Counted from the stretch's first letter, positions 2,974 through 59,888 are shown. The stretch is 64,000 bases of DNA from Candidatus Limnocylindrales bacterium (GCA_051306295.1 JBPPMZ010000054.1:8350-72349); one strand, 5' to 3'. Notes: generated by a model from the sequence alone, not told the origin. Translations and numbers: made by a program.

Positions 2974-3442
2974 CGAACACGTAGAACTGGTGTCCGAGCT
3001 CGGCCATCGCCGCGATCGCATCCTCCTCGAACATCGGCTCGATGGCGAAGCGCTTGGTCTTGACCACGCGACGTTCGCGGCCGGCGTCCGCCGTGCCGTC
3101 GGCGAGCTTGCGCAGGAGGGACTTCTCCTCCTCCGGGCGGGAGCGGACGCGCGGCTTCGATTTGTGCTCGACCGCCAGGCGCTCGACCTTGTCGATCACG
3201 ACGTCCAGGGCGGCCTGGTAACTGACGCCGACGGCGTGGCTGCGCAGGACCTGCCCGTCGATGACCAGCGTCACCTCCGCGATGTGGGCATCGGACGCGC
3301 TGCGGTGCATCTCGTTCGAGAACTCGACGATGGCATCCGACCGATCATCGAGGATGCGCTCGAGGCGGCCGAGTTTGCGCTCCGCGTAGTCGCGGACCCG
3401 GTCCGGGATCTCGATGTTCTTGCCCTTGACGATGGTCCGCAT
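2846..3442 (-). CDS. hpf: ribosome hibernation promoting factor, long form
   Basis: MRTIVKGKNIEIPDRVRDYAERKLGRLERILD... N-terminal S30AE/YfiA domain plus C-terminal dimerisation domain (FYVFVNAETERIAILYVRDDGDFGLIEP). Confidence 0.9.
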   Translation of the reverse strand: MRTIVKGKNIEIPDRVRDYAERKLGRLERILDDRSDAIVEFSNEMHRSASDAHIAEVTLVIDGQVLRSHAVGVSYQAALDVVIDKVERLAVEHKSKPRVRSRPEEEKSLLRKLADGTADAGRERRVVKTKRFAIEPMFEEDAIAAMAELGHQFYVFVNAETERIAILYVRDDGDFGLIEPSLGGDYTKGRSKRDGRDR

Positions 3443-4974: not shown

Positions 4975-5074
4975 GCGCCGATGATGATCGGGTTGGCTTG
5001 TCTGGCCCGTATCCGCCGGTTTGCTGGCGCTTATCTGCGATCGGCGTCGGGGCCCGGCCCGATCCAGCGCCGGG

Positions 5075-5757
5075 ATCGGCATACAGCGGTCCTACTTCTG
5101 GTATGAGGAGGTTCACGGCCTCGTCTTGAGCCTACACCGCGTTAGCAGCGATGGGCGCTCTGTTTGACGAGGATGCGCCAGTCCGAGACGCCCGCGGCCA
5201 GGCTAGTAGCAGGCACAGCTCTAGGTGCCGATTCCGGGGCGGCGATGGGATGCTCGGCCTCGCCCGGCGCTCGTGCCGGCGGTCGGAATCGGCATACAGC
5301 GGTCCGGCTGCTGCTACGCGCTGCGTCCCAGGCCAGTCGCCCGTCGTCACCTCCTTAGCAGCGACCGGGGCTCTGTATGCCGAGCATTCGCCCCCGCGGG
5401 CCGCTCGCGGCCGAGCCAGCAGAAGTCACGGCTCTGTATACCGAGAATAGGGCTGTGCGGTGCCACCTCGGGCAGGGCCTCGGTCTCGGCCGACGATCCT
5501 GGTCGCGGCCTGGCCTCGGGCCTCGGCCTCGGCGCTCGTGCCGGCCGTCGGAATCGGCAAACAGCAGTCCGGCCTCTGCTACGAGCAGCGTCCCAAGCCT
5601 GTCGCGCGTCTCCACCGCGTTAGCAGCGACCAGGGCTCTGTATGCCGAGGATTCGCCAGCGAGGGCCGCTCGCCGCCGAGCTTGCAGCGGCCACAGCTCT
5701 GGATGCCGATTCGAGGCGCCGGTGATGGGCCCGCCGGGCCCGCCGCCGGGCCCGGCT
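5075..5757. repeat. three tandem ~210-265 bp structured repeat units (non-coding)
   Basis: Shared blocks ATCGGCA(T/A)ACAGC(G/A)GTCC at 5075, 5288, 5553. CGCGTTAGCAGCGA-type blocks at 5138, 5353, 5617. GGCTCTGTATGCCGAG-type half-sites at 5156, 5217, 5369, 5430, 5634, 5695, paired at 61 bp. The first block is the approximate reverse complement of the half-sites. Confidence 0.75.
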
Positions 5758-8152: not shown

Positions 8153-9565
8153 TTAGTAGCTGAAGCCAAAGAGGCCGGGCGGCAGGTTGATCCCCATCAC
8201 CTCGAACTTCTCGACGAACTTGGGCCGGATCCCGGTCGCCTTGAGGCGACCCTGGATCTTGCCTTCGATGATTCCCGTCTGCTCGAAGACGAAGACGTCC
8301 TGCATGACGATGACATCACCCTCCATGCCCTGGACCTCGGTGATGTTCACGATCCGCCGGGTGCCGTCCTTGAGGCGGCTCTGCTGGACGATGAGATCCA
8401 CCGCGGACGCGACCTGCTCGCGGATGGCCCGCAGCGGCAGGTCCACGCCGGCCATGAGGACCATCGTCTCCAGGCGCGACAGCATGTCGCGCGGGGAGTT
8501 GGCGTGGCCGGTCGACATCGAGCCATCGTGGCCCGTGTTCATGGCCTGGAGCATGTCCAGCGCCTCACCGGACCGACACTCGCCGACGATGATGCGATCA
8601 GGCCGCATCCGCAGGGCGTTGCGCACGAGTTCGCGGATCGGGATGGCGCCCTTGCCCTCGATGTTCGGCGGGCGCGACTCCAGGGTCACGACGTGCTCCT
8701 GGCGGAGCTGCAGCTCGGCAGCGTCCTCGATGGTCACGATCCGCTCGTCGTTCGGGATGAAGGACGAGAGGACGTTCAGGGTGGTGGTCTTGCCCGAGCC
8801 CGTGCCGCCCGACACGAAGATGTTGAGGCGGGCCTCCACGCAGGCCTTCAGGAAGTCGAACATGTCCGGGGTGGCCGTGCCGAACCGGACCAGGTCGTCC
8901 GTCGTGAACGGCGAGGCGGAGAACTTCCGGATGGTGATGACCGGGCCCACCAGCGACAGCGGCGGGATGATCGCGTTGACGCGGGAGCCGTCGGTCAGTC
9001 GGGCGTCGACCATCGGCGACGACTCGTCCACGCGTCGGCCGATCGGGGCGATGATCCGATCGATGATGCGCATGACGTGGTCATCGTTCTGGAAGACGAC
9101 GTTCGTGAGCTCGAGCTTGCCGGATCGCTCGATGTAGACCTGGCGCGGGCCGTTGACCATCACCTCGGTGATGGACTCGTCGCGCAGGAGCGGCTCGAGC
9201 GGACCCAGGCCGATGATCTCATCGGTGATCTGCTCCAGCATCCGGACACGCTCGGCGCGGGTCAGGGCGAGGCCTTCCTCGTCGATGACCTTGCCGAAGA
9301 TCTCCTCGATCTGGCGTCGTACCTCGACCTGGTTTGACAGGTCGAGCTTTGGATCCAGGTCCTGGATGACCCGGCTCTGGATCCGGAACTTGACGTCTCG
9401 GAACGACTCGCGGACGGGCGCCTGCGTCGCGAGACGCGGCGTCGTCGGCATGGACGGCGGACCGCCAGCCGGTGCCGGGAGGTTGGGATTGTTGGGCGCT
9501 CCGCCGGCCGGCCCCTCAGGGGCACCACCAGGTCGAGCACTCTCGATCCGCTTCAACAGGGACAT
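8153..9565 (-). CDS. cpaF: Tad pilus secretion ATPase CpaF/TadA
   Basis: Walker A VSGGTGSGKTTTLN, Asp box, Walker B RIIVGECRSGEALDMLQAMNTGHDGSMSTGHANS. Typical CpaF family. Confidence 0.95.
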   Translation of the reverse strand: MSLLKRIESARPGGAPEGPAGGAPNNPNLPAPAGGPPSMPTTPRLATQAPVRESFRDVKFRIQSRVIQDLDPKLDLSNQVEVRRQIEEIFGKVIDEEGLALTRAERVRMLEQITDEIIGLGPLEPLLRDESITEVMVNGPRQVYIERSGKLELTNVVFQNDDHVMRIIDRIIAPIGRRVDESSPMVDARLTDGSRVNAIIPPLSLVGPVITIRKFSASPFTTDDLVRFGTATPDMFDFLKACVEARLNIFVSGGTGSGKTTTLNVLSSFIPNDERIVTIEDAAELQLRQEHVVTLESRPPNIEGKGAIPIRELVRNALRMRPDRIIVGECRSGEALDMLQAMNTGHDGSMSTGHANSPRDMLSRLETMVLMAGVDLPLRAIREQVASAVDLIVQQSRLKDGTRRIVNITEVQGMEGDVIVMQDVFVFEQTGIIEGKIQGRLKATGIRPKFVEKFEVMGINLPPGLFGFSY

Positions 9566-9621: not shown

Positions 9622-10902
9622 TCAGCGCCATGCGAACAACGATTTCTTCTGCGGGGCTTTGCGCGTATCGGCGCCGGACGCGACGTGCGCCCGCTCGCCG
9701 GTGACCGCCTTGGCCAACCGCAGGATGTCCTGGGAGACCTGGGCCTCCCGATTGCTGAGGAAGAACGGGACGCCCCGATTGAGCGCGTATACGACGCTCC
9801 GCCCGTCGCTGACGATGGTGTCGTCCACTTTCCGACCGATCGAGTGCTCGACGTCCGCGACGCGGATGCCCAGCGCCGAGTCGGCGCGATTGAGGACGAG
9901 CCGGATCTTGCCGCCTTCATAGCCGAGCTGGTCCGCGACCTCCAGGAAGAGGCGAATGTTCTTGATGCTCGTGATCTCCAGGCTGAGCATGGTCAGGATC
10001 GTGTCGGCGCTGTCCAGGATGGCCAGCGTGGTGTCGTTGAAGAATGCGGTGCAGTCCACGACCACGAGATCGTGGGTCCGTCGGAGCGTGTCGATGATCC
10101 GTCGGATGCCCGACGGCGTGATGAGTTCGGCCATCTCCGGCGACGGCGGTGCAAGCAGCACCCGGATCCCCGCGGAGTGGTTGATGACGAAGGTATCGAT
10201 CGATTCGACGTCGTTGCCGGCCTGCTCGAGCTCCGGGACGAGATCGGCGATGGACTTGTTCTTCGGGTTGAGGTTGAGCAGGACGCCCACGTCGCCGAAC
10301 TGGAAGGACCCGTCCACCAGGACGACCTTCTTGCCCAGTTCCGTCGCGGCCGCGACGGCCAGGTTGACCGCGACGGTCGTCCGACCGACACCGCCCTTGG
10401 GTGAGAAGACCGCGACCACGATACCGGGCTCGCCCCCGTCGGTCCGGGCCGTCGACGCGGCGGCGCTGGCGGCCGCACTGGTGGCCGCCGATGTGGGCGC
10501 ACCGGCGATGAGCCCCTGCTTCTCCTTCTCCCGGCTGTAGACCTGGCGGATGGAGGCGGTCAGTTCGTCGCTGCTGAACGGCTTGACGAGGAACTCTCGG
10601 GCCCCGGCGAGCATGGAGCGGCGGAGGTAGTCCGCCTCACCCTGGACGGACATCATCACGACCGAGGCCGTGGGGACCGCGCGGGCGAGCTGTTCTGTCG
10701 CGGCGATCCCGTCCATGTCCGGCATGTTGATGTCCATCAGGACGACATCCGGGGTGAGCGAGGTCGCCAGCGAGATCGCCTCAGCGCCGGACGCCGCGGA
10801 ACCGACCACGTCGATATCGCCCTCGAAGCCGAGCAGCTTCGTGAGGTGATCGCGGGTCTCCGGGATGTCATCGACGATGAGGACGCGGATCGTGTCGGCC
10901 AT
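9622..10902 (-). CDS. cpaE: response-regulator receiver domain fused to CpaE/TadZ-like ParA/MinD ATPase
   Basis: N-terminus RVLIVDDIPE...VVLMDINMPDMDG...MMSVQ...LVKPF is a complete REC signature. Ala/Ser linker, then deviant Walker A FSPKGGVGRTTVAVNLA. Confidence 0.85.
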   Translation of the reverse strand: MADTIRVLIVDDIPETRDHLTKLLGFEGDIDVVGSAASGAEAISLATSLTPDVVLMDINMPDMDGIAATEQLARAVPTASVVMMSVQGEADYLRRSMLAGAREFLVKPFSSDELTASIRQVYSREKEKQGLIAGAPTSAATSAAASAAASTARTDGGEPGIVVAVFSPKGGVGRTTVAVNLAVAAATELGKKVVLVDGSFQFGDVGVLLNLNPKNKSIADLVPELEQAGNDVESIDTFVINHSAGIRVLLAPPSPEMAELITPSGIRRIIDTLRRTHDLVVVDCTAFFNDTTLAILDSADTILTMLSLEITSIKNIRLFLEVADQLGYEGGKIRLVLNRADSALGIRVADVEHSIGRKVDDTIVSDGRSVVYALNRGVPFFLSNREAQVSQDILRLAKAVTGERAHVASGADTRKAPQKKSLFAWR

Positions 10903-13443: not shown

Positions 13444-13454
13444 GGCCGACCCCT

Positions 13455-14657
13455 TCAGCCGGTGACGGGTCCAGGGATGACCGGGATGTCCGCCAACAGG
13501 CGTAGTTCGCCGCCGTCGGCCAAGAGTTCGGCGACGACCCCGATCGATGCCGCCCGGCCCTGGATCTCGCGCCAAGACGTGGGCGGCAGCACGACGATCG
13601 AGTCGCGCAGGGCGGCCTCGACCGCGTCTCGCTCGTCGGAGCGGCGGTCCTCCATCATCGCGGCCAGGGCAGGAGGCAGATCTTTGCCGTCGTGGGCGGC
13701 CGGTGCCAGGGTCGTATCCGCGGCGGGTGGCCGCTCGACGACCGCACGCGTCGCCGTGATCCGGGCCTCGAGTTGCTCCGCCCAGTCAAGGCGCAGGGTG
13801 ATCCGATCCGGGTTGGTCGTCAGGTACGCTGCCAGGGCTTCGTCGAGCATCCGGAACAGGCCGCTCTCCAGGTCCATCGACAAGCGCCGATCCTGACCAA
13901 GGGAGTCGAATTCGACCGGGATGCCCGCACGCCGCCCGCGCTCGCGGGTGGCTCGGCGCAGCGTCGGCACCAATCCCAGATCGTCAAGGACCATCGGACG
14001 GACATCGAAGATGAACGACTTCGTGGCATCCAGGGTCTGCTGGACCATCGCCGTCAGTTGGCGCACCTCACCGGCGGCCGCCGACGGATCGCGCTCGACC
14101 AAGCGCTCCAGGATCTGGGCCTGGAGCACGATGTTGGTCAGACTCTGCGCCGGGCCGTCATGCATCGCCCGGGCGATCTCGCGGCGGAGGTCCTCCTGGG
14201 CACCCAGCACCAGCCGGGAGACGGCGGGTGGCATCGGGGCGTCACCGGCGCCCAGGGACGGCACGATCACCAGCGGGATCGCCGCGATGGCGTTCGGGTC
14301 CAGGGCATTGGCCGCCTCCAGGTAGGAGACGATCGCGTCCCGGTAGCGGCCCAGGGCCCGTCGCTTGCCCTCCAGCACGTCGACCTGCGAATCCATCAGG
14401 GCGGCGCGTTTGGTCAGCATGATCAGGCTGGTGGCCAGTTCAAGGCGGTCCTTGGGGTCGCCGTCGGTCGGGAGCGCGGCGAGCTTGTCGGACGCCGAGG
14501 TGCGGCGTGTGGCGTGCCGCGTGGCCTCGGCCCGTGCCTGGGTGATGAGCAGGTCCACCTCGGCAAGCTCTGCGTCGAGCGCGACGAGGTCATTCCCCAG
14601 CCGGGTGGTGAACCCGGCGAGGTCGGCGGCCGGTGTGGCGGCCCCGTCCGACATCAA
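13455..14657 (-). CDS. cytoplasmic DegS-like histidine kinase (HisKA_3) with apparently degenerate ATPase domain
   Basis: Coiled-coil N-terminus and H-box EIARAMHDGPAQSL. The C-terminal region lacks a clear N-box Asn (DEALAAYL) and a DxGxG box. Confidence 0.75.
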   Translation of the reverse strand: MMSDGAATPAADLAGFTTRLGNDLVALDAELAEVDLLITQARAEATRHATRRTSASDKLAALPTDGDPKDRLELATSLIMLTKRAALMDSQVDVLEGKRRALGRYRDAIVSYLEAANALDPNAIAAIPLVIVPSLGAGDAPMPPAVSRLVLGAQEDLRREIARAMHDGPAQSLTNIVLQAQILERLVERDPSAAAGEVRQLTAMVQQTLDATKSFIFDVRPMVLDDLGLVPTLRRATRERGRRAGIPVEFDSLGQDRRLSMDLESGLFRMLDEALAAYLTTNPDRITLRLDWAEQLEARITATRAVVERPPAADTTLAPAAHDGKDLPPALAAMMEDRRSDERDAVEAALRDSIVVLPPTSWREIQGRAASIGVVAELLADGGELRLLADIPVIPGPVTG

Positions 14658-46915: not shown

Positions 46916-47989
46916 TCAGACGCGTCCGGTCACCCAGTAGCGCTCGGCGGCGCCATCGACCCCGCCGTATTCGCCCATCGTCTTGCCGTGGGAGCGGACG
47001 GCGTTGGCCATCGCCTTCGTGTCGTCGAACAGGCGCGCCATCTGGCTCTCGTACAGCTGGATGCCGGTGATCTTGCGTTCCATCTGGTCGGAGATGTCGG
47101 CGTAAGTCGGAAGCAGGCTGATGTCCGCCGGCAGGCCCGCGAACACATCCGGCCCCAGGTCGTCGAGGCCATCGAAGGCGTTCCAGTAGGCGTACGGGAA
47201 GTCCTCGTAGAAGACGACCGTGCCGGTGTACTCGGGACCGGGCATGACCCACTTGCGACTCTCCGCAAGGAGCCCGACCCCGACCTGTCGGCAGAGCTGG
47301 TGGTCGACATGGCCACCGACGCCCAGCGGCAGGTAGACCTTCTGCGGCTCCAGGCGAGCGATCTCGTTGCGCAACAGCTGGAACGGGGCCGTGTCGTCGG
47401 CGCGCGGCGCGGACAGGAGCTGGTCGTCGCCCTCGTAGCCGCGGAACACGGCGTCAGGCAGGTCCAGGAACACGATGCTCGCCTCGGCGAAGTAGGCGAA
47501 GCGCTCGTCCTCCATCCGGCGGCGAGCCATCAGGTCGCCCGCGGCAGCCGCGTCCATGATCTCCTCGGTCATCACGGCGCCCTGGGTCGATAGGTCGTCG
47601 ATGACGGGCTGGCCGGCGAGTGACACGTTCCGGATGCTCGCCCGGCGATACCACGAGGAGCGCTGCCAGAAGCGCTTGGCAGCCGCATCGGCATCGGTCT
47701 GGGTCGCGTCCAGGGCGGCGGCGCTGGCGGCCCACGGGTCGGCGGCTGCGGCGGTCGGGTAGTCGGCCAGGATCGACGAGCGGTTGAAGGCCTCCGACGC
47801 TGGCCAGAGGGTCTTGCCACCGAAGCCCAGGGCCTCGCGCTGGTAGGTGGTCAGGTCGTCCGACTCGGTGTTGCCGGAGAAGACGGTCACGATGGCCACG
47901 TTCTGGCCGAGCTCGCGCAGGCTGGCGATCAGGCCCCCGCACGAGAGGGCGACATCGTCCGGATGCGGGGCGACGAAGACGTGGGTCAT
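46916..47989 (-). CDS. PIG-L/LmbE family N-acetylglucosaminyl deacetylase with C-terminal extension
   Basis: MTHVFVAPHPDDVALSCGG...VTVFSG N-terminal signature; later GGHVDHQL metal-ligand motif. Confidence 0.85.
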   Translation of the reverse strand: MTHVFVAPHPDDVALSCGGLIASLRELGQNVAIVTVFSGNTESDDLTTYQREALGFGGKTLWPASEAFNRSSILADYPTAAAADPWAASAAALDATQTDADAAAKRFWQRSSWYRRASIRNVSLAGQPVIDDLSTQGAVMTEEIMDAAAAGDLMARRRMEDERFAYFAEASIVFLDLPDAVFRGYEGDDQLLSAPRADDTAPFQLLRNEIARLEPQKVYLPLGVGGHVDHQLCRQVGVGLLAESRKWVMPGPEYTGTVVFYEDFPYAYWNAFDGLDDLGPDVFAGLPADISLLPTYADISDQMERKITGIQLYESQMARLFDDTKAMANAVRSHGKTMGEYGGVDGAAERYWVTGRV

Positions 47990-48897: not shown

Positions 48898-49557
<660 letters not shown>

Positions 49558-49566
49558 CCGAGCAGC

Positions 49567-50820
49567 CTATCCCTCCGAGAACGCCGGTTCCATCTGTTGC
49601 ACGTCGTATGTCCCCAGGCCGACCGACCGAGCCGCGCCCCGCCACTCAGCCACGGCCCGTCGCACCTCGTTGACCAGGGTGTTCGCGTCGGGCTTCGACA
49701 GTCGGAAGTAGGGCGCGAGCGCGATGACCATGGCGAGATCGGGTGCGTCGCTGTCGCCGTCCAGGGACAGGGCATGCCGATCGCGACCGGGCGTCGGGGT
49801 CAGATCGAACGCCGGCGACAGGCGCCATCCGCCCGCGCCCCACAGGAAGCCGTGGTTGCGCAGGTGATCGTCCCGGACGCCGGCCAGGACGTTGAACACC
49901 AGTCGACGGTAGGTCTGGGCCAGCTCGGCGGGGATCGCCGACGCGTCGGCATGGTCACCGATGGCTTCGGCGACATCGAGGTAGCTCGCCGGCTCTCCAT
50001 CGACATGGCCGGTGAGGGTCATCGCCGAGGCGTAGTGATGGCGCTGGTCCCCCACGCGATCGAAGCGGCGCGCTGCGAACGTCCGGTGGCTTGCCCCCAG
50101 GTCGAGGAGGCGAGCCTCGGGGACCTTGATGCCCGACGTTGCCGCGAGTCCATGCAGCACGTACTCCCATGCCCCGACATCGACGGTGTCGGAGCGCGAG
50201 GGAAACTTGGCGATCCACGGCGCGCCGGACTCGTCGAGGAATGTCGCCTTGGGCCGGGCTCCGCCGAGCGAACTGCCGGGCGCCAACAGGATCTTGAGCC
50301 AGCGCGCCTCCGACACCGGATCCTGGCGCGGTGACTCGAGGGCTCGTGCCGCGGCCTCCAGCTCGCGCAGCCGGGTGAACGGAGGGATCGGCAGCGGTCG
50401 GTCGGCGAGGTAGGCGACCGTTCGAGGGTTTCGAAGGCGCAGTCCGCCCATGCGGACCGGGTCGGCGACACCGAGCAGGAAGTCCCATTCGTCCAGCCGG
50501 CGCACCTTTCGACCCTCGTCCGTCGCCTCGGCGGCTTCTCGCCGCTCCATGAGCGAGCGGCCCCATCGATCAGGTGCGGCATCGGAGAGGATGCCGAACA
50601 GCCCGCCATCCGGCGCGAACTGATCGCCCGGATAGAGCCCGAGTGATGGGTCGATCGCGAAGGACCGGCGGTCGTCGAGCCATGTCTGGTCGAACGCGAA
50701 CGAGATCGCGGTCCGGCTCCCTGCTCCGACCCGCCGCAAGGAGCCCACGATCGATGGATCGGACTCACCGGGTCGTTGGAGCAGGACCTCGACCTCGTCG
50801 GGTGCGGGTCCCGATTTCAC
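49567..50820 (-). CDS. hipA: type II toxin HipA-family serine/threonine kinase
   Basis: Couple_hipA-like N-terminus, LGGARPKATF motif, DDHLRNHGF catalytic loop. GTGA overlap with the upstream HTH gene. Confidence 0.85.
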   Translation of the reverse strand: MKSGPAPDEVEVLLQRPGESDPSIVGSLRRVGAGSRTAISFAFDQTWLDDRRSFAIDPSLGLYPGDQFAPDGGLFGILSDAAPDRWGRSLMERREAAEATDEGRKVRRLDEWDFLLGVADPVRMGGLRLRNPRTVAYLADRPLPIPPFTRLRELEAAARALESPRQDPVSEARWLKILLAPGSSLGGARPKATFLDESGAPWIAKFPSRSDTVDVGAWEYVLHGLAATSGIKVPEARLLDLGASHRTFAARRFDRVGDQRHHYASAMTLTGHVDGEPASYLDVAEAIGDHADASAIPAELAQTYRRLVFNVLAGVRDDHLRNHGFLWGAGGWRLSPAFDLTPTPGRDRHALSLDGDSDAPDLAMVIALAPYFRLSKPDANTLVNEVRRAVAEWRGAARSVGLGTYDVQQMEPAFSEG

Positions 50821-51152
50821 GTCGGAGGCCTCGTGGGCGGTCGTCTTCGCGGCCCCCTCGCGGGCTGAGAGAGGGCGATGTCCTGGAGGCGCCGACCGAG
50901 TTCGTCATCCCGCGCGATCATGTCGAGGTCTCCCTCGAGGCCGAGGACGCCGAGGTACCTGGCCAGCACCGACAAGCCGATCGTCAGGTCGCCCTTCTCC
51001 AGCCGATGCAGCGTGTCACGTGACGCGCCTACCCGGGCGGCCATGTCCGTGGCCGTGATCCCCCGCCGGGAGCGGGCCAGCCGGAGCCGTTCGCCGAGGT
51101 CCTCCGCGCGACGCTGGACCCGCGGAAACGACGCCCGCGTGATCTTGCTCAT
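50817..51152 (-). CDS. hipB: HipB-like XRE-family HTH antitoxin
   Basis: ORF 50817..51206; start at 51152 (MSKITRAS) or 51206. LGERLRLARSRRGITATDMAARVGASRDTLHRLEKG HTH. Confidence 0.7.
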   Translation of the reverse strand: MSKITRASFPRVQRRAEDLGERLRLARSRRGITATDMAARVGASRDTLHRLEKGDLTIGLSVLARYLGVLGLEGDLDMIARDDELGRRLQDIALSQPARGPRRRPPTRPPT

Positions 51153-51239
51153 GTCCGATATCGTGGACGTTACGACTGGAAGTGTCAACGGTATCGGACG
51201 TCCCATGGGCGATACCGCACTCCAGCTGGCCCGCTGAGG

Positions 51240-51381
51240 CCGTGCGTGGGGGTCACGGTTTCGCGGTCAACGGACCAGATCGGGCGTTCCTCGGCGATGG
51301 TCCGTGCGTGGGAATCACGCCTGCCGCTCGAGGAGGCCGGGCCAGGGCCGCCCGGCTCGAAACCGTGCGTGGGAATCAGCT
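51240..51381 (+). repeat. array A: three direct copies of a 19-bp motif CCGTGCGTGGGARTCACGG at 62/61-bp phasing
   Basis: Copies at 51240-51258, 51302-51320, 51363-51381. The intervening 42-43 bp are mutually unrelated. The last copy overlaps the stop codon of the 51380..52093 gene. Confidence 0.8.
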
Positions 51382-52093
51382 ACGGGGCAGGAGACCCGGA
51401 CGGAGCGGCGGATGCGCTCGGGGCCGCGCTTGGGCTCGCGCTGGGTGCCGCCGACGGGCTCGCACCCGCGGAGGCGGAAGCTGAGGCACTCGCAGAGGGC
51501 GAGGTGCTCGTGGACGGTGCCACGCTCGCACTCGCCGAGGGCCGCGGGGTGGGGGTTCCCGTGATGAGGCCGCCCTTGCCGAGCAGGAAGCCGTTCAGCA
51601 GGATCGCCACGAAGACGGCCACCGTCACGATCACGAAGATCTTCGACCACGGCTCGTTGACGTGGACCGCGAGCTCGGATGCGGTCGGGGCGCGGTTGGT
51701 CGGCTTGGTCTCACCGCGGCGTCGAGCGCTCGACGGGGCCGCGCTCGCGGCCGCGGGCTCGGACTCGGCCGGCGCGACAGGGGCGTCCGGCGCGTCGTCG
51801 AGCTCGTCGTCGGGAGCCTCGTCGGTGTTGAGTTCCTGGTCGTCGGCGTCCTCGTCGTCCGCGTCGTCATCGGCGGCCGGCTCGGGCTCGGGCTCCGGCG
51901 CAGTCGCAGGCTCGGGCTCCGGCGCAGTCGCAGGCTCTGGCGCAGACGCAGACGCAGGCTCGGGATCGGGCACCGGCGCGGCGGCGGCCTCCGGCTCGGG
52001 CGCCGCGGGCGCGTCGGGGTCGGTCGTCTCCGGGTCGGGCGTGCCCTCGGGTCGGTCGGTCATCCGCTCGTCATCGCTCCTGGGGTGCGGCAC
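51380..52093 (-). CDS. single-pass membrane protein with acidic Pro/Ala/Glu-rich N-terminus and Ser/Ala/Pro-rich C-terminus
   Basis: Central TM IFVIVTVAVFVAILLNGFLLG with high GC3 in this frame. Tandem PEPATAPE repeats. No family recognised. Confidence 0.55.
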   Translation of the reverse strand: MPHPRSDDERMTDRPEGTPDPETTDPDAPAAPEPEAAAAPVPDPEPASASAPEPATAPEPEPATAPEPEPEPAADDDADDEDADDQELNTDEAPDDELDDAPDAPVAPAESEPAAASAAPSSARRRGETKPTNRAPTASELAVHVNEPWSKIFVIVTVAVFVAILLNGFLLGKGGLITGTPTPRPSASASVAPSTSTSPSASASASASAGASPSAAPSASPSAAPSASAAPSGSPAP

Positions 52094-52166
52094 AGGTCAT
52101 CCGGTCGAACGCCGCCGCGCGGGCGCCAGTGTACCCAAGTCGAACGGCCGGGCCGCGCAATCGCGC

Positions 52167-54341
52167 TCACGTGGCGTCGCGGATGGCGGGCACGAGGAAC
52201 CCGGCGATCCCGGCGCCCATGCTCACCAGCCCGAACAGGGCGATCACGAGCGTGACCGGGATGAACACCGAGAGGATGCCGCCCAGGGCCATCGCCAGTG
52301 CCATCGAGCCGAAGACCAGCGCGAACCGGAACCCGACGACGCGGCCCATCAACGCGCCCGGCGTCCGTTCCTGGAACAGCGCCTGGCTCGGGATGATGAA
52401 GACCATGTTGGCCACCCCGGAGCCGATCGCTAGCCCGATGACGATGCCAAGGTTGCCCGACAGCGCGAGGAAGACCGTGCACAGGCCCCAGACCGCGTAG
52501 CCGGCGCTGATCAGTCGACCCTTGGCCAGGCGGGAGCCGATGAGCCCGATGACGAAGCCGCCGATCAGGTTGCCGACGCCGATCCCGGATTCGATGAAGC
52601 CGTACGCCACGGTCGGCGCGATGCCCTGCGGCTCGAAGACCGCCACGGTGTACGCGACGGTCAGGGCGGTCAGCACGCCGACGTTGAGCTGCGCGACGGC
52701 AGCCTGGATCGTGTTCGCGAAAAGGGTCCGCTCGGAGCGCAGGAATCGATAGCCCGCCTGCATCTCGCCGAAGAAGCCGGTCGGCTGAGAGGCATCGTCG
52801 GCGGTGGCGGCCTGGGCCTCGGCGGTTTCCGCGGCTTCGGTCGCATCGGAGGCGACCGGATCTCGGATGAGCATCGTGCTGATGAGCGCGGCGGAGGCGA
52901 TGTACGTGGCGGCGTCCAGCCAGAACGCGACGGGGAGGGCCAAACCGAGCGCCGTGACGAACAGCGCGGCGAGCGGCAGGCCGACGACGTCCGCGATGGT
53001 CTCGCCGACCCACAGCGCGCTGTTGGCCGTGACGAGTTCGTCCTTGGCCACGATCCGCGGCAGGATCGCGATGCGCGCCGGCCGGAAGAAGATCGAGATC
53101 GTCGTCAGCAGGAAGACCAGCGGGAAGACGAACCAGACGCTCGTCACGATGGCCACCGGGATGATCAGGACCGTCGCGGCGCGGAGGAGGTCGCTGACGA
53201 TCATCACTTCCTTGTGATCCCAGCGATCGACGAAGGTGCCCGCGATCGGACTGAACACCAGGTTCGGGATGAACCCGGCGACGAACACGAAGGCGGTCGC
53301 GAGCGCCGAGCCGGTGGTGATCTGGACCGCGAAGGCCAGCGCGATGAGATGCAGCCGATCACCGAACAGCGAGACGAGCTGGCCTGCCCACAGAGCGGAG
53401 AACGAGCCGTTGAGGGCGAGCCGAACATACGGGTGTCGGCGGACCCGGGCCAGCATCTCCGGGGAGGGACGGGGCAGGGTGATCGTGGGCGCGGAGGACG
53501 TGGCACCCGGGATCGAGACGCCGGAGGCATCGAAGGCGGCGCTCGCGGCCGCATCGTCCAGGTCGTCCGGGTACGGTCCGACGGGTAGCGGCGCCAACGC
53601 CGGGGAGCTGAGTCCCGTGCCGCCCGATTGCGAACCCAGGAAGACCGGTCGGTCCAGGGAGGCCGTGTCCTGGATGGCCGGAGCGAGGCCCGTCTCGGGG
53701 TTGATCGTGGTCCCGTCCCGGCGGGGGAGGCGGGTCGCACCGGCCAGACCGAACAGGCGGCGCCGGATGGCCTCTTCCTCGCTCGCCTCCAGGTGGCTCG
53801 GCACGCGGATGACGCCGGCGAACAGGAAGAAGCCCAGGCCCAGGGTGAGGAACACGTCGCCGAGCGAGGCCACGTTCTGGACGAACGGCAGCGGGATCGG
53901 GATGACGTCGCCCAGGATCAGGCCGCGGAGCAGGAAGTCGGTCGCCGTGCCTGGGACGACGATGTGCAGGGCGGAGGTCACGTCCAGCTGGGTGAGTCCG
54001 GCGGCCGAGAGGGCCGCCTCCCAGATCGGCATGTGGCCGCCGTTGATCGTGATGACGATCGCGTTCAGCAGGATGCCGATGAACGCGAGGCCCAGACCCG
54101 GGTAGCCGCGATTGACATACAGGCCACCGAGGAGGAGGGCAAACCCGCTGGTCAGGAGCGGGACACGCAGGGCGTCGATGATCTCGACGCCCTGGTTGAG
54201 CAGCGCTTCGGTCCCGAACCGGACGATGACCGCCGCGAACAGGATCCAGGTGGCCCGCAACTGGATGCTGCCCAGGTTGCTGAGCCGGCCGCCATTGCGG
54301 AGGCCGAGGAGCAGACCGAGGACGATGCCGCCGATCAGCAT
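52167..54341 (-). CDS. DUF5317-like membrane domain fused to an MFS transporter
   Basis: The N-terminal 180 aa (MLIGGIVLGLLLGLRNGGRLSNLGSIQLRATWILFAAVIV...GDVFLTLGLGFFLF) resemble DUF5317, from memory. Pro-rich linker, then a 12-TM MFS (RLALNGSFSALWAGQLVSLFGDRL). Confidence 0.7.
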   Translation of the reverse strand: MLIGGIVLGLLLGLRNGGRLSNLGSIQLRATWILFAAVIVRFGTEALLNQGVEIIDALRVPLLTSGFALLLGGLYVNRGYPGLGLAFIGILLNAIVITINGGHMPIWEAALSAAGLTQLDVTSALHIVVPGTATDFLLRGLILGDVIPIPLPFVQNVASLGDVFLTLGLGFFLFAGVIRVPSHLEASEEEAIRRRLFGLAGATRLPRRDGTTINPETGLAPAIQDTASLDRPVFLGSQSGGTGLSSPALAPLPVGPYPDDLDDAAASAAFDASGVSIPGATSSAPTITLPRPSPEMLARVRRHPYVRLALNGSFSALWAGQLVSLFGDRLHLIALAFAVQITTGSALATAFVFVAGFIPNLVFSPIAGTFVDRWDHKEVMIVSDLLRAATVLIIPVAIVTSVWFVFPLVFLLTTISIFFRPARIAILPRIVAKDELVTANSALWVGETIADVVGLPLAALFVTALGLALPVAFWLDAATYIASAALISTMLIRDPVASDATEAAETAEAQAATADDASQPTGFFGEMQAGYRFLRSERTLFANTIQAAVAQLNVGVLTALTVAYTVAVFEPQGIAPTVAYGFIESGIGVGNLIGGFVIGLIGSRLAKGRLISAGYAVWGLCTVFLALSGNLGIVIGLAIGSGVANMVFIIPSQALFQERTPGALMGRVVGFRFALVFGSMALAMALGGILSVFIPVTLVIALFGLVSMGAGIAGFLVPAIRDAT

Positions 54342-54437
54342 GTGGGGGTGGGTGTGCGGGCGGTCTCGGCGATCACGGCGTCATGATGGGGTCTCGCGGC
54401 CCCTACCCGCCGGCCTTGCCGGGCCCCGGTGGCCTAC

Positions 54438-54580
54438 CCGTGACTCCCACGCACGGAAATCGGCCCAAGACCCTCGTGGAGGCGATCCTGTTACCGGATC
54501 CGTGACTCCCACGCACGGTTGCCTCGCGATGAGCGTCCTGGACCGGCCCATGGCCTCAAATCCGTGATTCCCACGCACGG
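54438..54580 (-). repeat. array B: three copies of the same 19-bp motif, inverted relative to array A, at 62-bp phasing
   Basis: Plus-strand CCGTGA(C/T)TCCCACGCACGG at 54438-54456, 54500-54518, 54562-54580. The 43-bp spacers are unrelated. Confidence 0.8.
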
Positions 54581-54612: not shown

Positions 54613-56016
54613 TCAGGCGCGTTCGGTGGTCGAGGGCGCGGCGATCGGTGCCGGCCGGCCGGCGACCGCCGGGTCGGTCGAGGTCATGCGGCTCGCCACC
54701 TGGCCGATGAGCGGGATCGGTCGGGGCTGGATCGTCCGACCGGGGTCGGCGACGCCTTCGACGTGATGGGTCTTGACGAAAGCGTCGACCACGACCGGGT
54801 CGAACTGGATGCCCGCGAACTTGCGCAGCTCGCCGAGCGCTTGCTCGTGCGTGAGCGGCGTCATGCGGTACGGGCGGGCGGCTGTCATGGCCTCGAACGC
54901 GTCCGCCACGTGGAGGATCCGGGCGAGCTTCGGGATCTCGTCACCGATGAGCCGGTCCGGGTAGCCCGAGCCGTTGTACCACTCGTGGTGGTGCCGGATG
55001 ATCGGCAGCTCCGGGGCAAGTTTGGTGACGGGGGCGATGATCTGCGCGCCCAGGACCGGGTGCGCGTTCATGATCATCCGCTCCTCCCGGTTGAGACGCT
55101 CTTGCTTCAGGAGGACGTTGTCCGGGACACCGATCTTACCGACGTCGTGCAGCAGGCCGCCCCACTCCAGCGCCTCGAGCTCCGCGTCATTGACCCGCAT
55201 CACCCGCCCGATATCGACCGCGATGTTCTTGACTCGCTGGCTGTGCAACGCCGTGAACGGATCCCGCTTGTCCACCGCCTCCGCCAGCGCCCCGATCGTC
55301 TGCGTGAACATATCCCGCATCTCGACGAAGCGGCTCGAAGCCATTCGAGTGGTGTACAACGGGAGAGCGAAGAGCAGAGTGCTCCACCAGGAAACGGAAT
55401 AGATCACTGAGGTAAGCCAACCCAGCGGCGCCAAGGCTAGATTGTTGACGGCTGTGCCACGTAGGTCGCCGAACACGATCGTTCTCAGCGTGTGGCCAGT
55501 CCGCAGGGCAAGTAGAAGAGCAGCCAACCCGATGTTAAGGGCGTAGAACGCGGCGGATGCAACCATTGCTGCGGCAAAGTCGCGTAGACGGTCGTCCGAG
55601 TCGCCTGTCAGGACAACGTGGACAACTCCTGCCGCGACCGCTGGAATCACGAGTGATGCGTGATTTGCCAGCGTGCCGTACCAGGGAATGCGACCCCGCA
55701 GCTCCCGCGATTCGGTTACACCTATGGCGGCGACCCATGCCCCGACGGCCGGCCCCCCGAGAAATGTGGCCGCGAGGATCGGCGCGCTGGCGACCGCCTG
55801 CTGGGAGCCAAGTGGCATTCGGACCGGGAGTGCCGACGCCACCAGGGTCAAGAGAATCCAGAAGCCCACGCCAAACGCGACAGCTAAGTCGCTTGAGAGA
55901 CCTGCCAGCGGGAGGGCAATTTGCCCCGTGGAAGGAAAGAGAAGAGTCGCAGCCACCAGTGCTAATGCACCTGCAGCCACGACTCCAATCACGTAGATCT
56001 TCAGAGCTTTAGGCAT
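54613..56016 (-). CDS. membrane-anchored HD-GYP domain protein (putative c-di-GMP phosphodiesterase)
   Basis: About 7 N-terminal TM helices, then HSQRVKNIA...LHDVGKIGVPD...HHEWYNGSGYPDRL. Confidence 0.85.
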   Translation of the reverse strand: MPKALKIYVIGVVAAGALALVAATLLFPSTGQIALPLAGLSSDLAVAFGVGFWILLTLVASALPVRMPLGSQQAVASAPILAATFLGGPAVGAWVAAIGVTESRELRGRIPWYGTLANHASLVIPAVAAGVVHVVLTGDSDDRLRDFAAAMVASAAFYALNIGLAALLLALRTGHTLRTIVFGDLRGTAVNNLALAPLGWLTSVIYSVSWWSTLLFALPLYTTRMASSRFVEMRDMFTQTIGALAEAVDKRDPFTALHSQRVKNIAVDIGRVMRVNDAELEALEWGGLLHDVGKIGVPDNVLLKQERLNREERMIMNAHPVLGAQIIAPVTKLAPELPIIRHHHEWYNGSGYPDRLIGDEIPKLARILHVADAFEAMTAARPYRMTPLTHEQALGELRKFAGIQFDPVVVDAFVKTHHVEGVADPGRTIQPRPIPLIGQVASRMTSTDPAVAGRPAPIAAPSTTERA

Positions 56017-56260
56017 TGTTGCCCCGTGCGAACCGCCCCATCAGCGTGAATCTAGTTGGAGACTCACTGCATAGTAATGGGCAATCCGTACTAGAAGCCC
56101 CTCAGAGACGCTCCCCCAGCTAGTGCGATCATTGCAACGCTCGACAGCGTCACAATGATTCGCGTGATTCGGGCCTTCATGGTGATCTACCAGCCCTTGA
56201 GAGACGTTTCCGGTGCCACGCTCGTACCTCCTTGCGGCCCTCGCACTCCTGGGGGAGCAC

Positions 56261-56292
56261 GAAAACCGACCTGACTCATGGTCGGTCGGTTG
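56261..56292 (-). terminator. hairpin followed by U-run on the minus strand
   Basis: Minus strand AACCGACC-N-GGTCGGTT then TTTC. Lies about 155 nt downstream of the stop of the 56448..59888 gene. Confidence 0.35.
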
Positions 56293-56447
56293 CACTACTC
56301 GCTCCGCCTCACCCTAAGTGCCCATTTCAGGTGAGACATCGGCGCGTCCGAGCGTCTTGACGTTACTTCCTAGTACTGGGGTACTAGTCAGTGGGGTGAC
56401 TTTAGGGACGCTGGAGTAGCACGGTCAATACGGCACCTTACCTATCC

Positions 56448-59400
56448 CTATATCGCGTCCAAGGGGGGCACCTCGAGTCCAAGGTCGTCCCTCATGGCCG
56501 ACGCGTAGTGCGCGTACTGCTCCGCAGCTGCCGCGTGGGCGCCAGTAGCCTTGTACAACCGAAGTAGCGAAACCTCGATCTGCTCAGCTGTCGGGTCGAC
56601 TTCGAGGGCACGACGCGCGACGCTGATCCCACGGTCGTGGTGTCCTGTTGCAAAGTCGTCAACGACCGCTCGCTCGACGATTTCTAGATACGCCGCGTGG
56701 AGATTGTCGCGATACGAGCCCGCCCACTCTTCATACTCGAAGTCCAAGGCAAACCGTGCCAAGTAGAGTCCGACAAGGCGCTCCACTTCGTCTGGCGACG
56801 GCCGCGCTGGCAACGAGCGAATGAAGTCCTTTGCGGCCCTACTTCTACACGCGATGAGCTCCGGATCGAGCCACACAACATCTGAGTCGTGGTGCACATA
56901 GCCAGGAGACAGGTCCTCCGAGTAGTCGGGTTCAAAGACCCTACGTAGAAAGTAGATCGTCTGATTCAGCGAATTGATGGCCACATCCGGCGCGAGGTCC
57001 GGCCATAACGCCTCGAGCACTTGATCGCGTGTACTCGACATGCCAGGCCGCGTCACTAGGTAGCAAACGAGTGCCAAGACTTTTCGACGGATCTCGCTCC
57101 CGGGCACGACCCGCTGTCCGATCAGGAGGGACACGCGCCCCTGATCTTCGATGACGACGCGGTCGGCGACTCGTCGCGCGAGACTCCTTCCGAGGTGAGC
57201 GAGGTCAGGTCGCCGCTTGGACTGTCTTGCAATCGCGCGAAGTCGGCGAACATCGCTCCGGTCACCCACCTCTTCGAGAAGCTTTGCCGCCTGAAGCTGA
57301 TGACCATTCTGGGATATCTCAACGGCATCGCGGAGCGCCAAGCGCCATCGTGATGGAAATGCGACTGCCGACTGTCGTACGACCTCGAGTGACAATTCGT
57401 CGAGTTCGGCTAGTCGCGTTGCCACCAACTCGGCTACATACGCGAGGCTATGTGGCGCTTCCCGCCCGTTGGCGGAGACTCCGCGACTCCAGGCGTCCGG
57501 AGTTCCCGTCCGCGCAACAAGGAGGGAGGCGACTCGTCGCAAGCGCTGTGCCCCTTGGGACTGACACGCCGCCTCGGCCTCGAGTGCGAGATCGGAGCCC
57601 CCGTCCAGGCCGGCTGCGACTGCAAGATAGGCACGGCAAATCAAGAGTTGGGAACTGAATGCGACTGCGGTTGGACGACCGCTCGGCATCGCCTCTAATG
57701 CAGACCGAGCGTTGCCGAATTCGCGTCGTCGTATGAACCATCTTGCCATGACAAGGCACAGAGATCGACGGTCAGCGACGGAAATTGACTCTCGCTGTCG
57801 CGCCTGAGCGATAAGCGACCACGACCGACTCGGGTCTAGGAAAGTGTCGAAGAGGTCCGCAGACTCAATGCTCGATTCCGTCAGGTCGTGCCCGGCCGTC
57901 TCGTCGAGCAGTCCTTCGACAATGTTCGTCGCGTCGTCCAGCCGGCCCATGGTCGCAAGCACAGAAGCCTTGACCATCCGAGCCGCTCGCAACTCCATGA
58001 CGGCCGAACCGGCCTCCAGCGCATCAATGGCCGCTTGGATATCCACAAGGCTCCTTCCGACCTCGTTCTGAAGGAGTCTCGTGACCGCCAGGTTGTGTTG
58101 GGTAATTGCGAAGAAGTGGGGCCGTGCCGCCCCCTGCGCTTTGGCCATTCCCTGGAGGCGTCGACTTAGCTTATCGAGACTCGCGCCCTCGCCGGTCAGG
58201 ATCATCTCAACTGTGGCATCCGCGATAGACCGCAATCCCGAGTCGCCGGACGATCGAAGTGCTGTCGCGTGTTCGACTGTGGCTTCCCCATTTCCCGAGT
58301 TGTAGTTCAGCGTGATCAGGTTCAGGAGGGCGTAGTCGCGTTCGATGTCGTTCGTGGCCGAGTCGAGGACGGCCTGTGAGGCGGCCATCGCGGCTTCGTA
58401 GTCGCCTTGCTGCATCTCGACGCGTGAGGTGATCAGGCCGAAGCCGGTCGGGCGCTCGTCCGGTGGAACCGGGTCGATGAACGCCTCGGCCAGGGCGTAC
58501 TGCCCGTTACCCATGATCTCGGGGATCGCCCGGCTGACCGCTGCGAGCATCTGTTCGGTGTCGCCGGCCTCGCGGTAGTGGTGGGCCGCGATCCTCCAAT
58601 CCGAGGTCGCGGCGGCTGTGCGTCGATGTAGCGCGTTGACCGCGTCGTCACCGTCCAGCGACCGGAACCGTGCCTCCAGGAACTCGCGCACCAGCGGGTG
58701 GTAGCGCTGATGCGTCCGCGGCGCCCCCGACAGCCGACTCAGCAGGGTCACTCGTTCCGCCGCGACGACGAGCCGCGCCACATCGACGGCATCGTGCCCG
58801 CTCACGACCTCGGCCAGGTCCGGCGTCACGACCTGCAGGATGGACGTGTCCATCAGGAACCGCTGCAGTTCCAGCGACAGCTCGCCGACCACCTCCTCCG
58901 CGAGGTAGTCGTACATCTCCTTGTCGGCCCCGTTCAGCGTCTTGACGAAGCGCCGGATCTCGCCGGGTGAGCGATCCCGCAGCGCCGCCTGGACCAGGTG
59001 CAGGGACGCGATCCAGCCCTCGGTCCGTTCCGCGAGGTCCACCAGCACGTCGGGGTCCAGGTTCCGGCCGTACGTCTCGTTGAACAGCTTCGCGGTCTCG
59101 TCGACATCGAACCGCAGGTCGTCGGTCGTGAGTTCGGCCACCTCGCCGACCGCGCGCAGACGCGACAGGGGGACGGTCGGCGGACGTCGACTGGCGAACA
59201 CGATGCTGAGCCGCTCCGGGGCGCGTGCGATCAGCTCGCGCGCGATGTGCCGGACGTCCGCGGCGTCGTCGACCAGGTGGAAGTCGTCGAGGATCAGGAC
59301 CGCGCCACCGACGGCGATCGATGGCAGCTCGCGAAGGAACGTCTCGAGCACGGACTCCCGGGTCGGCCCACCGACGCCGATCTCCCCGAGGAGTGAGGCC

Positions 59401-59888
59401 GTGGTCGGGGCGAATGTCGGGTCGTGCTCTCGGCCGGCCGCCACGAGGTGCGCGATGAACGACGTCCAGTCGCGATCCGTCTCGTCCAGCCGATACCACA
59501 ACGTCGGGATCCGGCTGCGCCGTGAGAAGTCGGCGAGCAGGGTGGTCTTGCCGTAGCCGGCGTCGGCCAGCAGCAGAACGACGCGGTTGTGCACCTTGAC
59601 GCGCAGCCAGTCGAGCAGGCGCGGGCGCTCCAGCGTCTCGACCCGGAGGGCGGGGCGCTGCACCTTCGCGATGGTGATGGGGTACCCGCTGGACTCGTCG
59701 CGCAGGAGTCCGCTCCTTGGCCCGTTGACGACCGACGGTCGGCCCGGACCGACGGGGATCGGCGTCCGTTCCAGGACGGTGGACCACGACTCGGGCCGGG
59801 CGAATGATGCGGACCGCGAGAACGGGGTGTCAACGACGAGATGTGGGCCGCGCTGCATGGGCATGCGCGCCATGGTGCCGACGGGCAC
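56448..59888 (-). CDS. MalT-like STAND NTPase with TPR-like middle region and C-terminal OmpR-type wHTH + BTAD (SARP) module
   Basis: Walker A LLLADAGYGKTTLLADF, Walker B VLILDDFHLV, MalT-like ERTEGWIASLHL. The C-terminus (RKVLALVCYLVTRPGMSSTRDQVLEALWPD...NQTIYFLRRV, plus a BTAD ending LRLYKATGAHAAAAEQYAHY) is SARP-type. Confidence 0.8.
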   Translation of the reverse strand: MPVGTMARMPMQRGPHLVVDTPFSRSASFARPESWSTVLERTPIPVGPGRPSVVNGPRSGLLRDESSGYPITIAKVQRPALRVETLERPRLLDWLRVKVHNRVVLLLADAGYGKTTLLADFSRRSRIPTLWYRLDETDRDWTSFIAHLVAAGREHDPTFAPTTASLLGEIGVGGPTRESVLETFLRELPSIAVGGAVLILDDFHLVDDAADVRHIARELIARAPERLSIVFASRRPPTVPLSRLRAVGEVAELTTDDLRFDVDETAKLFNETYGRNLDPDVLVDLAERTEGWIASLHLVQAALRDRSPGEIRRFVKTLNGADKEMYDYLAEEVVGELSLELQRFLMDTSILQVVTPDLAEVVSGHDAVDVARLVVAAERVTLLSRLSGAPRTHQRYHPLVREFLEARFRSLDGDDAVNALHRRTAAATSDWRIAAHHYREAGDTEQMLAAVSRAIPEIMGNGQYALAEAFIDPVPPDERPTGFGLITSRVEMQQGDYEAAMAASQAVLDSATNDIERDYALLNLITLNYNSGNGEATVEHATALRSSGDSGLRSIADATVEMILTGEGASLDKLSRRLQGMAKAQGAARPHFFAITQHNLAVTRLLQNEVGRSLVDIQAAIDALEAGSAVMELRAARMVKASVLATMGRLDDATNIVEGLLDETAGHDLTESSIESADLFDTFLDPSRSWSLIAQARQRESISVADRRSLCLVMARWFIRRREFGNARSALEAMPSGRPTAVAFSSQLLICRAYLAVAAGLDGGSDLALEAEAACQSQGAQRLRRVASLLVARTGTPDAWSRGVSANGREAPHSLAYVAELVATRLAELDELSLEVVRQSAVAFPSRWRLALRDAVEISQNGHQLQAAKLLEEVGDRSDVRRLRAIARQSKRRPDLAHLGRSLARRVADRVVIEDQGRVSLLIGQRVVPGSEIRRKVLALVCYLVTRPGMSSTRDQVLEALWPDLAPDVAINSLNQTIYFLRRVFEPDYSEDLSPGYVHHDSDVVWLDPELIACRSRAAKDFIRSLPARPSPDEVERLVGLYLARFALDFEYEEWAGSYRDNLHAAYLEIVERAVVDDFATGHHDRGISVARRALEVDPTAEQIEVSLLRLYKATGAHAAAAEQYAHYASAMRDDLGLEVPPLDAI

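Follow-up and report, generated by a model that had tools for sequence, protein, structure and literature searches.

How should a pair of short repeat arrays be read when their geometry recalls at once transposon ends, CRISPR arrays, intergenic repeat families and phased operators? This question is raised by a stretch of 64,000 nucleotides of DNA from Candidatus Limnocylindrales bacterium (GCA_051306295.1 JBPPMZ010000054.1:8350-72349), the whole of which is referred to here as the window, where two triplets of a 19-bp motif, array A and array B, bracket a gene for an acidic membrane protein and a DUF5317-MFS fusion gene. As judged from sequence comparison with related genomes, the arrays are real, are orthologous in two diverged genomes and have kept their core and unit length above neutral expectation. 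They form a non-random cis-element under evolutionary constraint, unusual in being paired, convergent and phased, and are neither a transposon nor CRISPR. We tentatively propose, at a probability of about 0.4, that the triplets are clade-specific, helically phased putative binding sites for a sequence-specific DNA-binding protein, which would modulate or insulate the DUF5317-MFS/acidic gene pair.

Reading of the sequence and a motif search both find the motif, CCGTGCGTGGGARTCACGG, in six copies, three on the plus strand (51240, 51302 and 51363) and three on the minus strand (54438, 54500 and 54562). The copies are direct within each array and the two arrays are inverted relative to each other:

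51240..51258, plus strand: outermost copy of array A, CCGTGCGTGGGGGTCACGG; its orthologue is copy d1 of the related contig L058
51302..51320, plus strand: middle copy of array A, CCGTGCGTGGGAATCACGC
51363..51381, plus strand: innermost copy of array A, CCGTGCGTGGGAATCAGCT; the final 2 nt lie within the stop codon of the acidic gene (51380-51382, TAG on the minus strand)
54438..54456, minus strand: innermost copy of array B, CCGTGCGTGGGAGTCACGG on the minus strand; the DUF5317-MFS start codon lies 97 bp downstream
54500..54518, minus strand: middle copy of array B, CCGTGCGTGGGAGTCACGG
54562..54580, minus strand: outermost copy of array B, CCGTGCGTGGGAATCACGG; the HD-GYP stop codon lies 32 bp before it

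These positions and strands agree with those of a preliminary description made from the window alone, as do the start-to-start intervals of 62, 61, 62 and 62 bp. A search allowing up to three mismatches to CCGTGCGTGGGAATCACGG returns exactly six matches in the 64-kb window; shuffled sequence gives a mean of 0.01 matches, and none of 100 shuffles reaches six. The earlier statement that the window holds no other full copy stands for the 19-mer at this threshold and extends to the 16-nt core defined below. Array B falls after the HD-GYP stop (54613) and before the DUF5317-MFS start (54341), and array A extends from the acidic-gene stop codon to a point 52 bp ahead of the hipB -35 box. Gene coordinates bear out two further points, namely that the arrays enclose exactly the acidic membrane-protein and DUF5317-MFS genes and that array A is placed upstream of hipBA.

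The evidence for constraint comes from L058, one of several relatives' contigs that were reached through homologues of the DUF5317-MFS protein. The L058 protein is 88% identical to that of the window by BLASTP and 89% in direct alignment, with a value of 0.64 at four-fold degenerate sites. Downstream of its acidic gene, copies of the motif stand at 3084, 3144 and 3205 (spacing 60 and 61 bp) in the orientation of array A, the innermost overlapping the acidic-gene stop codon (TAA) exactly as in the window; upstream of DUF5317-MFS, copies stand at 23, 84 and 146 (spacing 61 and 62 bp). All eight intervals in the two genomes are thus 60-62 bp. When array A is compared between the window and L058, the 16-nt core is identical at 42/48 positions (88%) and the spacers at 45/85 (53%; Fisher p=5e-5), and the core also lies above the four-fold degenerate sites of the flanking genes, which are 0.62-0.65 identical between the same two sequences. 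In a stack of ten intact copies CCGTGCGTG is invariant in 10/10, G11, C15, A12, T14 and A16 are nearly invariant and the last three positions are free, which defines the constrained core as the asymmetric CCGTGCGTG-G-GA-R-TCA at positions 1-16.

This profile bears on how the motif could be recognized. The 5-bp inverted ends CCGTG...CACGG noted in the preliminary description are present in 4/6 window copies; the orthologous L058 copies do not keep them, and the freedom of the last three positions leaves the CACGG arm unconstrained. Because the palindromic ends are not conserved, the motif is asymmetric and requires no hairpin, and RNA folding agrees, array B folding no better than its shuffles (z=+0.64). 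The absence of a hairpin requirement favours recognition at the level of DNA. A protein complex acting at the level of DNA would be expected to preserve both the core and the unit length, whereas a tandem repeat or a dead CRISPR array in neutral decay would wear evenly. The spacers, which had been called unrelated, are essentially so, no pair of paralogous units exceeding z=3.1, but a weak GGCCCGAAA-like pattern, conserved at about 50-60%, occupies the 9-10 nt 5' of each copy.

The surrounding genes of the region, all on the minus strand, are as follows from upstream to downstream:

56448..59888, minus strand: STAND-type regulator gene, 1146 amino acids (aa), with AAA_16/AAA_22, OmpR-type wHTH and BTAD domains; orthologous regulators in L128, L129 and L131
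56428-56399, minus strand: sigma-70-like promoter from the promoter scan, ahead of the riboswitch
56275..56358, minus strand: cyclic di-GMP (c-di-GMP)-II riboswitch, Rfam RF01786, 66.6 bits versus a gathering score of 53.5
54613..56016, minus strand: HD-GYP c-di-GMP phosphodiesterase gene (MASE9 + HD_5), directly upstream of array B; mosaic allele
54370..54389, minus strand: conserved box CCATCATGACGCCGTGATCG on the array B side of the DUF5317-MFS gene, with about 30 nt separating it from the start codon
52167..54341, minus strand: DUF5317-MFS fusion gene, 724 aa (Pfam DUF5317, MFS_1, MFS_3), enclosed by the arrays
51380..52093, minus strand: gene for an acidic, repeat-rich single-pass membrane protein of 237 aa that matches no Pfam family, likewise inside the arrays
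51188-51183, minus strand: hipB -35 box TTGACA, between the hipBA module's own TCCGATA/TATCGGA palindromes
50817-51152, possibly to 51206, minus strand: hipB, which with hipA fills a variable slot adjoining array A
49567-50820, minus strand: hipA, of the hipBA module at 49567..51152
48898-49557, minus strand: PCMT
46916-47989, minus strand: PIG-L

Four relatives, L128 (67% identical), L129 (68%), L130 (62%) and L131 (62%, on a 3.1-Mb contig), share the gene order of the window: DnaB, zf_Tbcl, Dodecin, a large AAA/MalT-type regulator, a small open reading frame (ORF), HD-GYP, DUF5317-MFS, the acidic protein, PCMT, PIG-L and Alg6/8. The DUF5317-MFS and acidic genes occupy the matching chromosomal site in L127-L131, where no motif was found, and in L128-L131 no inverted repeat pairs the two intergenic regions. 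The acidic gene is fast-evolving and syntenic downstream of DUF5317-MFS in L058, L128 and L129. A nearer relative, L059, has HD-GYP, a 150-bp repeat-free spacer and DUF5317-MFS in succession, its MFS 94% and the C-terminal half of its HD-GYP 96% identical to the window, where the same spacer measures 271 bp; the surrounding intergenic DNA is rich in indels. Because the gene order is conserved in relatives without arrays, the two enclosed genes are old residents of this neighbourhood and the arrays a later, clade-specific addition. Within the group of four close relatives the greatest distance separates the window from L058, and L059 and L057 are mutual nearest neighbours; the simplest history would place the arrays in the common ancestor, with a single loss in the L059/L057 branch. 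Homologue searches with HD-GYP and the acidic protein gave no further close array-bearing relatives. The source names of the homologues point to Candidatus Limnocylindrales (Chloroflexota), as a lead and not a placement.

The arrays are not mobile. Pfam scanning covered the ORFs supported by GC content at third codon positions and the long ORFs in gaps, over 51 kb on one side and 9.4 kb beyond array B, and found no transposase (DDE, rve), integrase, resolvase or cas domain among them. The outer ends of the arrays carry no target-site duplication (flanks ...GCTGAGG|CCGTG and CACGG|TTGGGGC, TGAGG vs TTGGG), and the termini begin with CCG, with no TGT or TG...CA. As a separate observation, in the sublineage of L057 (7459-9630) and L142 (10001-12172) a DUF5317-MFS gene that is 91-92% identical stands by itself among unrelated, repeat-free surroundings, its neighbours encoding a 249-aa protein and a 203-aa protein without known function; homology to the window takes in the gene with about 60 bp of upstream and about 20 bp of downstream sequence, and the gene is either a translocated or a second copy. 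As read from these contigs, the arrays are not the vehicle even where the DUF5317-MFS gene has moved.

In the binding-site interpretation that we prefer, each site would be the asymmetric core of about 16 bp. Three sites set 61-62 bp apart, or about six helical turns, would place the bound proteins on roughly one face of the DNA, where they could cooperate. The two arrays face each other across 3.2 kb, and bridging between them could form a loop, or they could serve as paired boundaries. They stand at both junctions of the DUF5317-MFS/acidic pair within an ancestral string of c-di-GMP-II riboswitch, HD-GYP, DUF5317-MFS and acidic gene that keeps to one strand, behind the riboswitch, in all relatives, and this position suggests that they might tune or uncouple expression of the pair relative to HD-GYP upstream and hipBA downstream. 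On the coding strand each array is followed by an element that is promoter-like or conserved: array B ends 45 bp before the box at 54370-54389 and array A at the 52-bp distance from the hipB -35 box. From this layout we infer protein binding, cooperativity or looping, a regulatory effect and a possible binder, the 1146-aa STAND/wHTH/BTAD regulator being the only local candidate to bind the motif.

Phased multi-site operators with looping are known from MalT boxes, from Lrp at pap and ilvIH and from the three-operator loops of DeoR. The arrays resemble them in repeating a short site at near-integral turns upstream of promoters, in forming two bridgeable clusters kilobases apart and in adjoining a STAND-type regulator gene. 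They differ in a spacing of 62 bp where two to three turns are usual, in clusters that converge around two genes rather than on a promoter, and in being dispensable in close relatives. The preliminary description had listed phased operators for a looping regulator among its three alternatives, and this is the one that survives. The part that concerns the sites is indirectly supported by a core conserved above the neutral rate and a conserved unit length at near-integral turns; the looping regulator itself is hypothetical.

Several observations weigh against binding sites under selection. Array B is decayed in L058, where its copies match at 12/19, 16/19 and about 10/19 positions, and L059, although very close to the window, is without array B. 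Because core and spacing are nevertheless conserved, the arrays come out as constrained yet, to judge from these relatives, dispensable. The argument for selection draws on one orthologous comparison between two array-bearing genomes, and gene conversion among copies may have contributed to their likeness. The period of 61-62 bp corresponds to 5.8-5.9 turns at 10.5 bp per turn, so that the phasing is approximate. Relative to the downstream gene, the motif faces one way in array A and the other way in array B, an arrangement seldom expected of a simple activator site. Finally, no similar motif from a known regulator was found.

Known sites were compared with the motif by eye. Matches to extracytoplasmic function sigma factor -35/-10 elements (SigH/SigR type), sigma-54 promoters, DnaA boxes, CRP, IHF, parS and matS sites were considered, and none is consistent across the copies. 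HipB was rejected as the binder: hipBA has its own palindromic operators, and L058 carries the arrays without hipBA.

How the arrays arose can be separated from what they do. They probably began when an intergenic unit of about 61 bp was tandemly duplicated, and only the binding core and the spacing would later have been kept. This origin is suggested because a young 61-bp array exists at the same junction in L128, because the corresponding spacers are prone to tandem duplication and because the GGCCCGAAA-like pattern persists. At the HD-GYP/DUF5317-MFS junction of L128 (9639-9901) lie five copies of a true 61-bp tandem repeat, whose units are 81-95% identical including their spacers and are centred on a different 19-bp perfect palindrome, TCGCCCACCGGGTGGGCGA; L128 has no partner array downstream. 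Short tandem duplications of other periods occur in the corresponding spacers of L059, L127 and L130. The HD-GYP gene upstream of the L128 repeat looks broken, an 80-aa C-terminal ORF following 2 kb without gene calls. If the window arrays are phased binding sites, they would show intergenic tandem duplications turning into cis-regulatory architecture and, for the Limnocylindrales-like Chloroflexota, which are abundant in soil and have no genetics, would offer a compact way into gene control that is defined by sequence.

The rival that survives best, possible though in our estimate unlikely, is a STAR/MIRU/BIME-like intergenic repeat that was amplified and has persisted without a dedicated role at the locus, in which case the finding would be ordinary. 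With the STAR, MIRU, REP and BIME families the arrays share a short GC-rich motif, spacers of about 40 bp and an intercistronic location, and the stop-codon overlap of the innermost array A copy recalls MIRUs, one unit end of which is reported to overlap the stop codon of a neighbouring gene (PMC3184786). The plain 61-bp tandem repeat at the equivalent junction of L128, the unrelated short tandem repeats in the spacers of L127, L130 and L059, a second repeat structure in the window at 5050-5710 and the dispensability and partial decay of the arrays in relatives all fit this explanation. Against it, 155 kb of lineage DNA (the 64-kb window and 91 kb of relatives) contains no copy outside the orthologous locus. 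Paired convergent arrays and the lack of a stable stem-loop also set the locus apart from these families, and unrelated spacers alongside a retained core and unit length are not predicted by uniform neutral decay of a tandem repeat.

Wider searches agree. The genome-collection and metagenome scans required exact matches and would miss diverged copies, no L058 copy matching the 19-mer pattern of the genome scan. Across 185,579 species genomes (GTDB) the pattern CCGTGCGTGGGNNTCACGG found no arrays, giving 56 singletons in unrelated phyla, a chance level, none with a second copy within 8 kb. A two-copy pattern scan of the JGI metagenomes yielded no relative of the arrays; it returned genuine CRISPR arrays of type I-C (GTCGCCCACCGTGCGTGGGCGTGGGTTGAAAC) and I-E-like type (GTGTTTCCCCCGTGCGTGGGGATAGTCGG) as well as unrelated tandem repeats, the common part being CCGTGCGTGGG. 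Motif and spacers gave no match beyond chance in viral contigs, plasmids and phages. An abundant REP-like element, which the preliminary description had named as the finding that would undo its proposals, is therefore not what the searched genomes and metagenomes contain. As an observation apart, L061, an unrelated metagenome contig, carries plain tandem repeats of 66-68 bp (8337-9062 and 10232-10675) with a hairpin, AATCCCACGCAC-GGCA-GTGCGTGGGATT, that is a palindromic doubling of a sequence close to the motif core; the resemblance may be coincidental, the search pattern having selected for it.

The binding-site interpretation also has a stronger form, which we consider rather improbable: the convergent triplets would anchor a protein-mediated DNA loop or boundary isolating the two-gene unit within an operon controlled by a c-di-GMP riboswitch, a small selectable 'insulated domain'. 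Its repeat-spacer-like architecture would then owe nothing to CRISPR or to transposition.

Two further explanations take the inverted arrangement as functional in itself. It is very unlikely that the copies are sites for a trans-encoded site-specific recombinase that inverts the 3.3-kb segment, as in a shufflon or inverton, and thereby cuts the two genes off from the upstream promoter. Asymmetric sites with one conserved part, inverted on either side of a gene segment, recall the sfx sites of R64, and the L058 contig stops about 20 bp outside array B, as would be expected from an assembly break at a variable junction. However, the scanned window ORFs include no recombinase, the orientation of the segment is identical in the window, in L058 and in all other relatives, and three phased copies per side would be unnecessary for inversion.

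We give equally little credence to an RNA-level role, in which the copies of array B (5') and array A (3') would pair on one transcript in three duplexes of 16-18 bp, circularizing the messenger RNA or marking it for processing of the RNase III type, as with the processing stems of ribosomal RNA. The genes do lie on one strand behind one promoter and riboswitch, the spacing is equal in both arrays and pairing reaches 17/19 for the outer, 18/19 for the middle and 16/19 for the inner copies, G-U pairs included. Yet the upstream copies of L058 have decayed without compensation downstream, leaving 14/19 in the middle pair; unrelated 42-nt loops and a fixed spacing would go unexplained, and the array B fold gives no structure signal.

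The idea of multi-site transposon ends, put forward in the preliminary description, is largely refuted already, and we regard relic subterminal arrays of a Tn7-, Tn5053- or Mu-like transposon, whether of a non-autonomous element or as solo ends, as highly improbable. The geometry fits the computational definition of Tn7-like ends, which asks for intergenic repeats of about 20 bp, at most 75 bp apart and in opposite orientation at the two ends (PMC8649781): the window sites are about 20 bp long, direct within each end, inverted between ends, within 75 bp of one another and intergenic. The supposed cargo, however, belongs to the ancestral, syntenic chromosome, and L059 and L127-L131 have it without arrays. 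The comparison of orthologous loci that had been suggested as a check thus finds the two-gene cassette in array-less relatives and no target-site duplications. No tnsB-like or other transposase occurs among the scanned ORFs, the TGT or TG terminus is missing, and symmetric 3+3 ends with equal spacing differ from the asymmetric 3/4 of Tn7. In the genomes and collections searched, the same ends were not found around other cargo, the bounded segment showed no presence/absence polymorphism, and the motif is absent from the plasmid, phage and viral collections. As this locus has the computational geometry of Tn7-like ends and is nevertheless immobile, it is a warning that synteny has to be checked before the name 'cargo' is given to a bounded segment.

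CRISPR mini-arrays, whether fossil or ectopic ("neo-"), the decayed repeat-spacer structure of the preliminary description, are just as hard to credit. The 61-62 bp period is that of a type I-E repeat-plus-spacer unit, repeats are conserved next to unrelated spacers, the inner copy of array A is degenerate, the weak 5' conservation extends the unit to about 28 nt and genuine I-E-like and I-C metagenome repeats contain CCGTGCGTGGG, the last partly by construction of the search pattern. Against this, the repeat is well conserved over 16-19 nt only, short of the minimum of about 23 nt, and its sharp core beside a 5' stretch of 9 nt at about 50-60% is not uniform decay. It lacks a hairpin and the C-run/G-run stem typical of I-E repeats; no cas genes occur among the scanned window ORFs, the arrays are static, with orthologous copy number and spacers in genomes that differ at about 36% of four-fold degenerate sites, and the spacers have no protospacer or other meaningful match to phages, plasmids or viruses.

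Iteron and centromere arrays also flank operons, as do parC1/parC2 of pB171 and the iterons around rep of P1 and F, and the window likewise has two clusters of a short repeated site on both sides of a small operon; unlike them, it is chromosomal, encloses a transporter and a membrane protein rather than Par or Rep and has a 62-bp period rather than one of 11-22 bp.

Other elements of the neighbourhood are better matched to known classes. The riboswitch is the only Rfam match in the window, no RNA family appearing at the arrays, and a promoter and terminator scan of the region likewise returned nothing at the arrays. Its position ahead of an HD-GYP phosphodiesterase makes a feedback loop plausible. 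Relatives have a 29-aa small ORF at the position of the riboswitch. The box between array B and the DUF5317-MFS gene, GCATCATGACGCG(A/G)TGA(C/T)C, is conserved in the window, L057, L058, L059, L127, L128 and L142; it is kept down to 67% identity, including the translocated gene copies, and L129-L131 lack it. Probably the box is a promoter belonging to the gene, or an element of its 5' untranslated region or leader. More than 2000 homologues share the architecture of the DUF5317-MFS protein, and a literature search for DUF5317 found nothing.

The second repeat structure, at 5050-5710, consists of a unit of about 213-265 bp present three times and has no Rfam match. The unit holds the inverted partners GGAATCGGCATACAG and CTGTATGCCGAG(G/C)ATTC; GCTCTGTATGCCGAG occurs in it as pairs with a 61-bp interval (5369/5430 and 5635/5696). 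A hairpin in L128 at 13450-13590 (GAAATCGGCATACGTCGG...CCGACGTATGGC) is loosely similar to this structure.

The HD-GYP gene upstream of array B is a mosaic. Its residues 210-467 are 96% identical to L059 and its residues 1-207 are only 66% identical to P0127, in its turn 98% identical to L059; the junction in the window gene lies near 55390. The GC content falls from about 0.70 to 0.57-0.64 over 55000-58400, a stretch that takes in the divergent part of HD-GYP, the riboswitch and part of the 1146-aa regulator gene. The coincidence of divergence and GC drop suggests recombinational replacement from a distant allele.

On the other side of the arrays, the slot between the acidic gene and PCMT varies in content. 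It holds hipBA in the window (49567-51206), an HTH_17 gene of 80 aa in L128 (13156-13398) and, as judged by eye, what is left of the C-terminal part of a Fic-family gene, with a frameshift, in L058 (3224-3657), and it looks like a small hotspot for genes of the toxin-antitoxin type.

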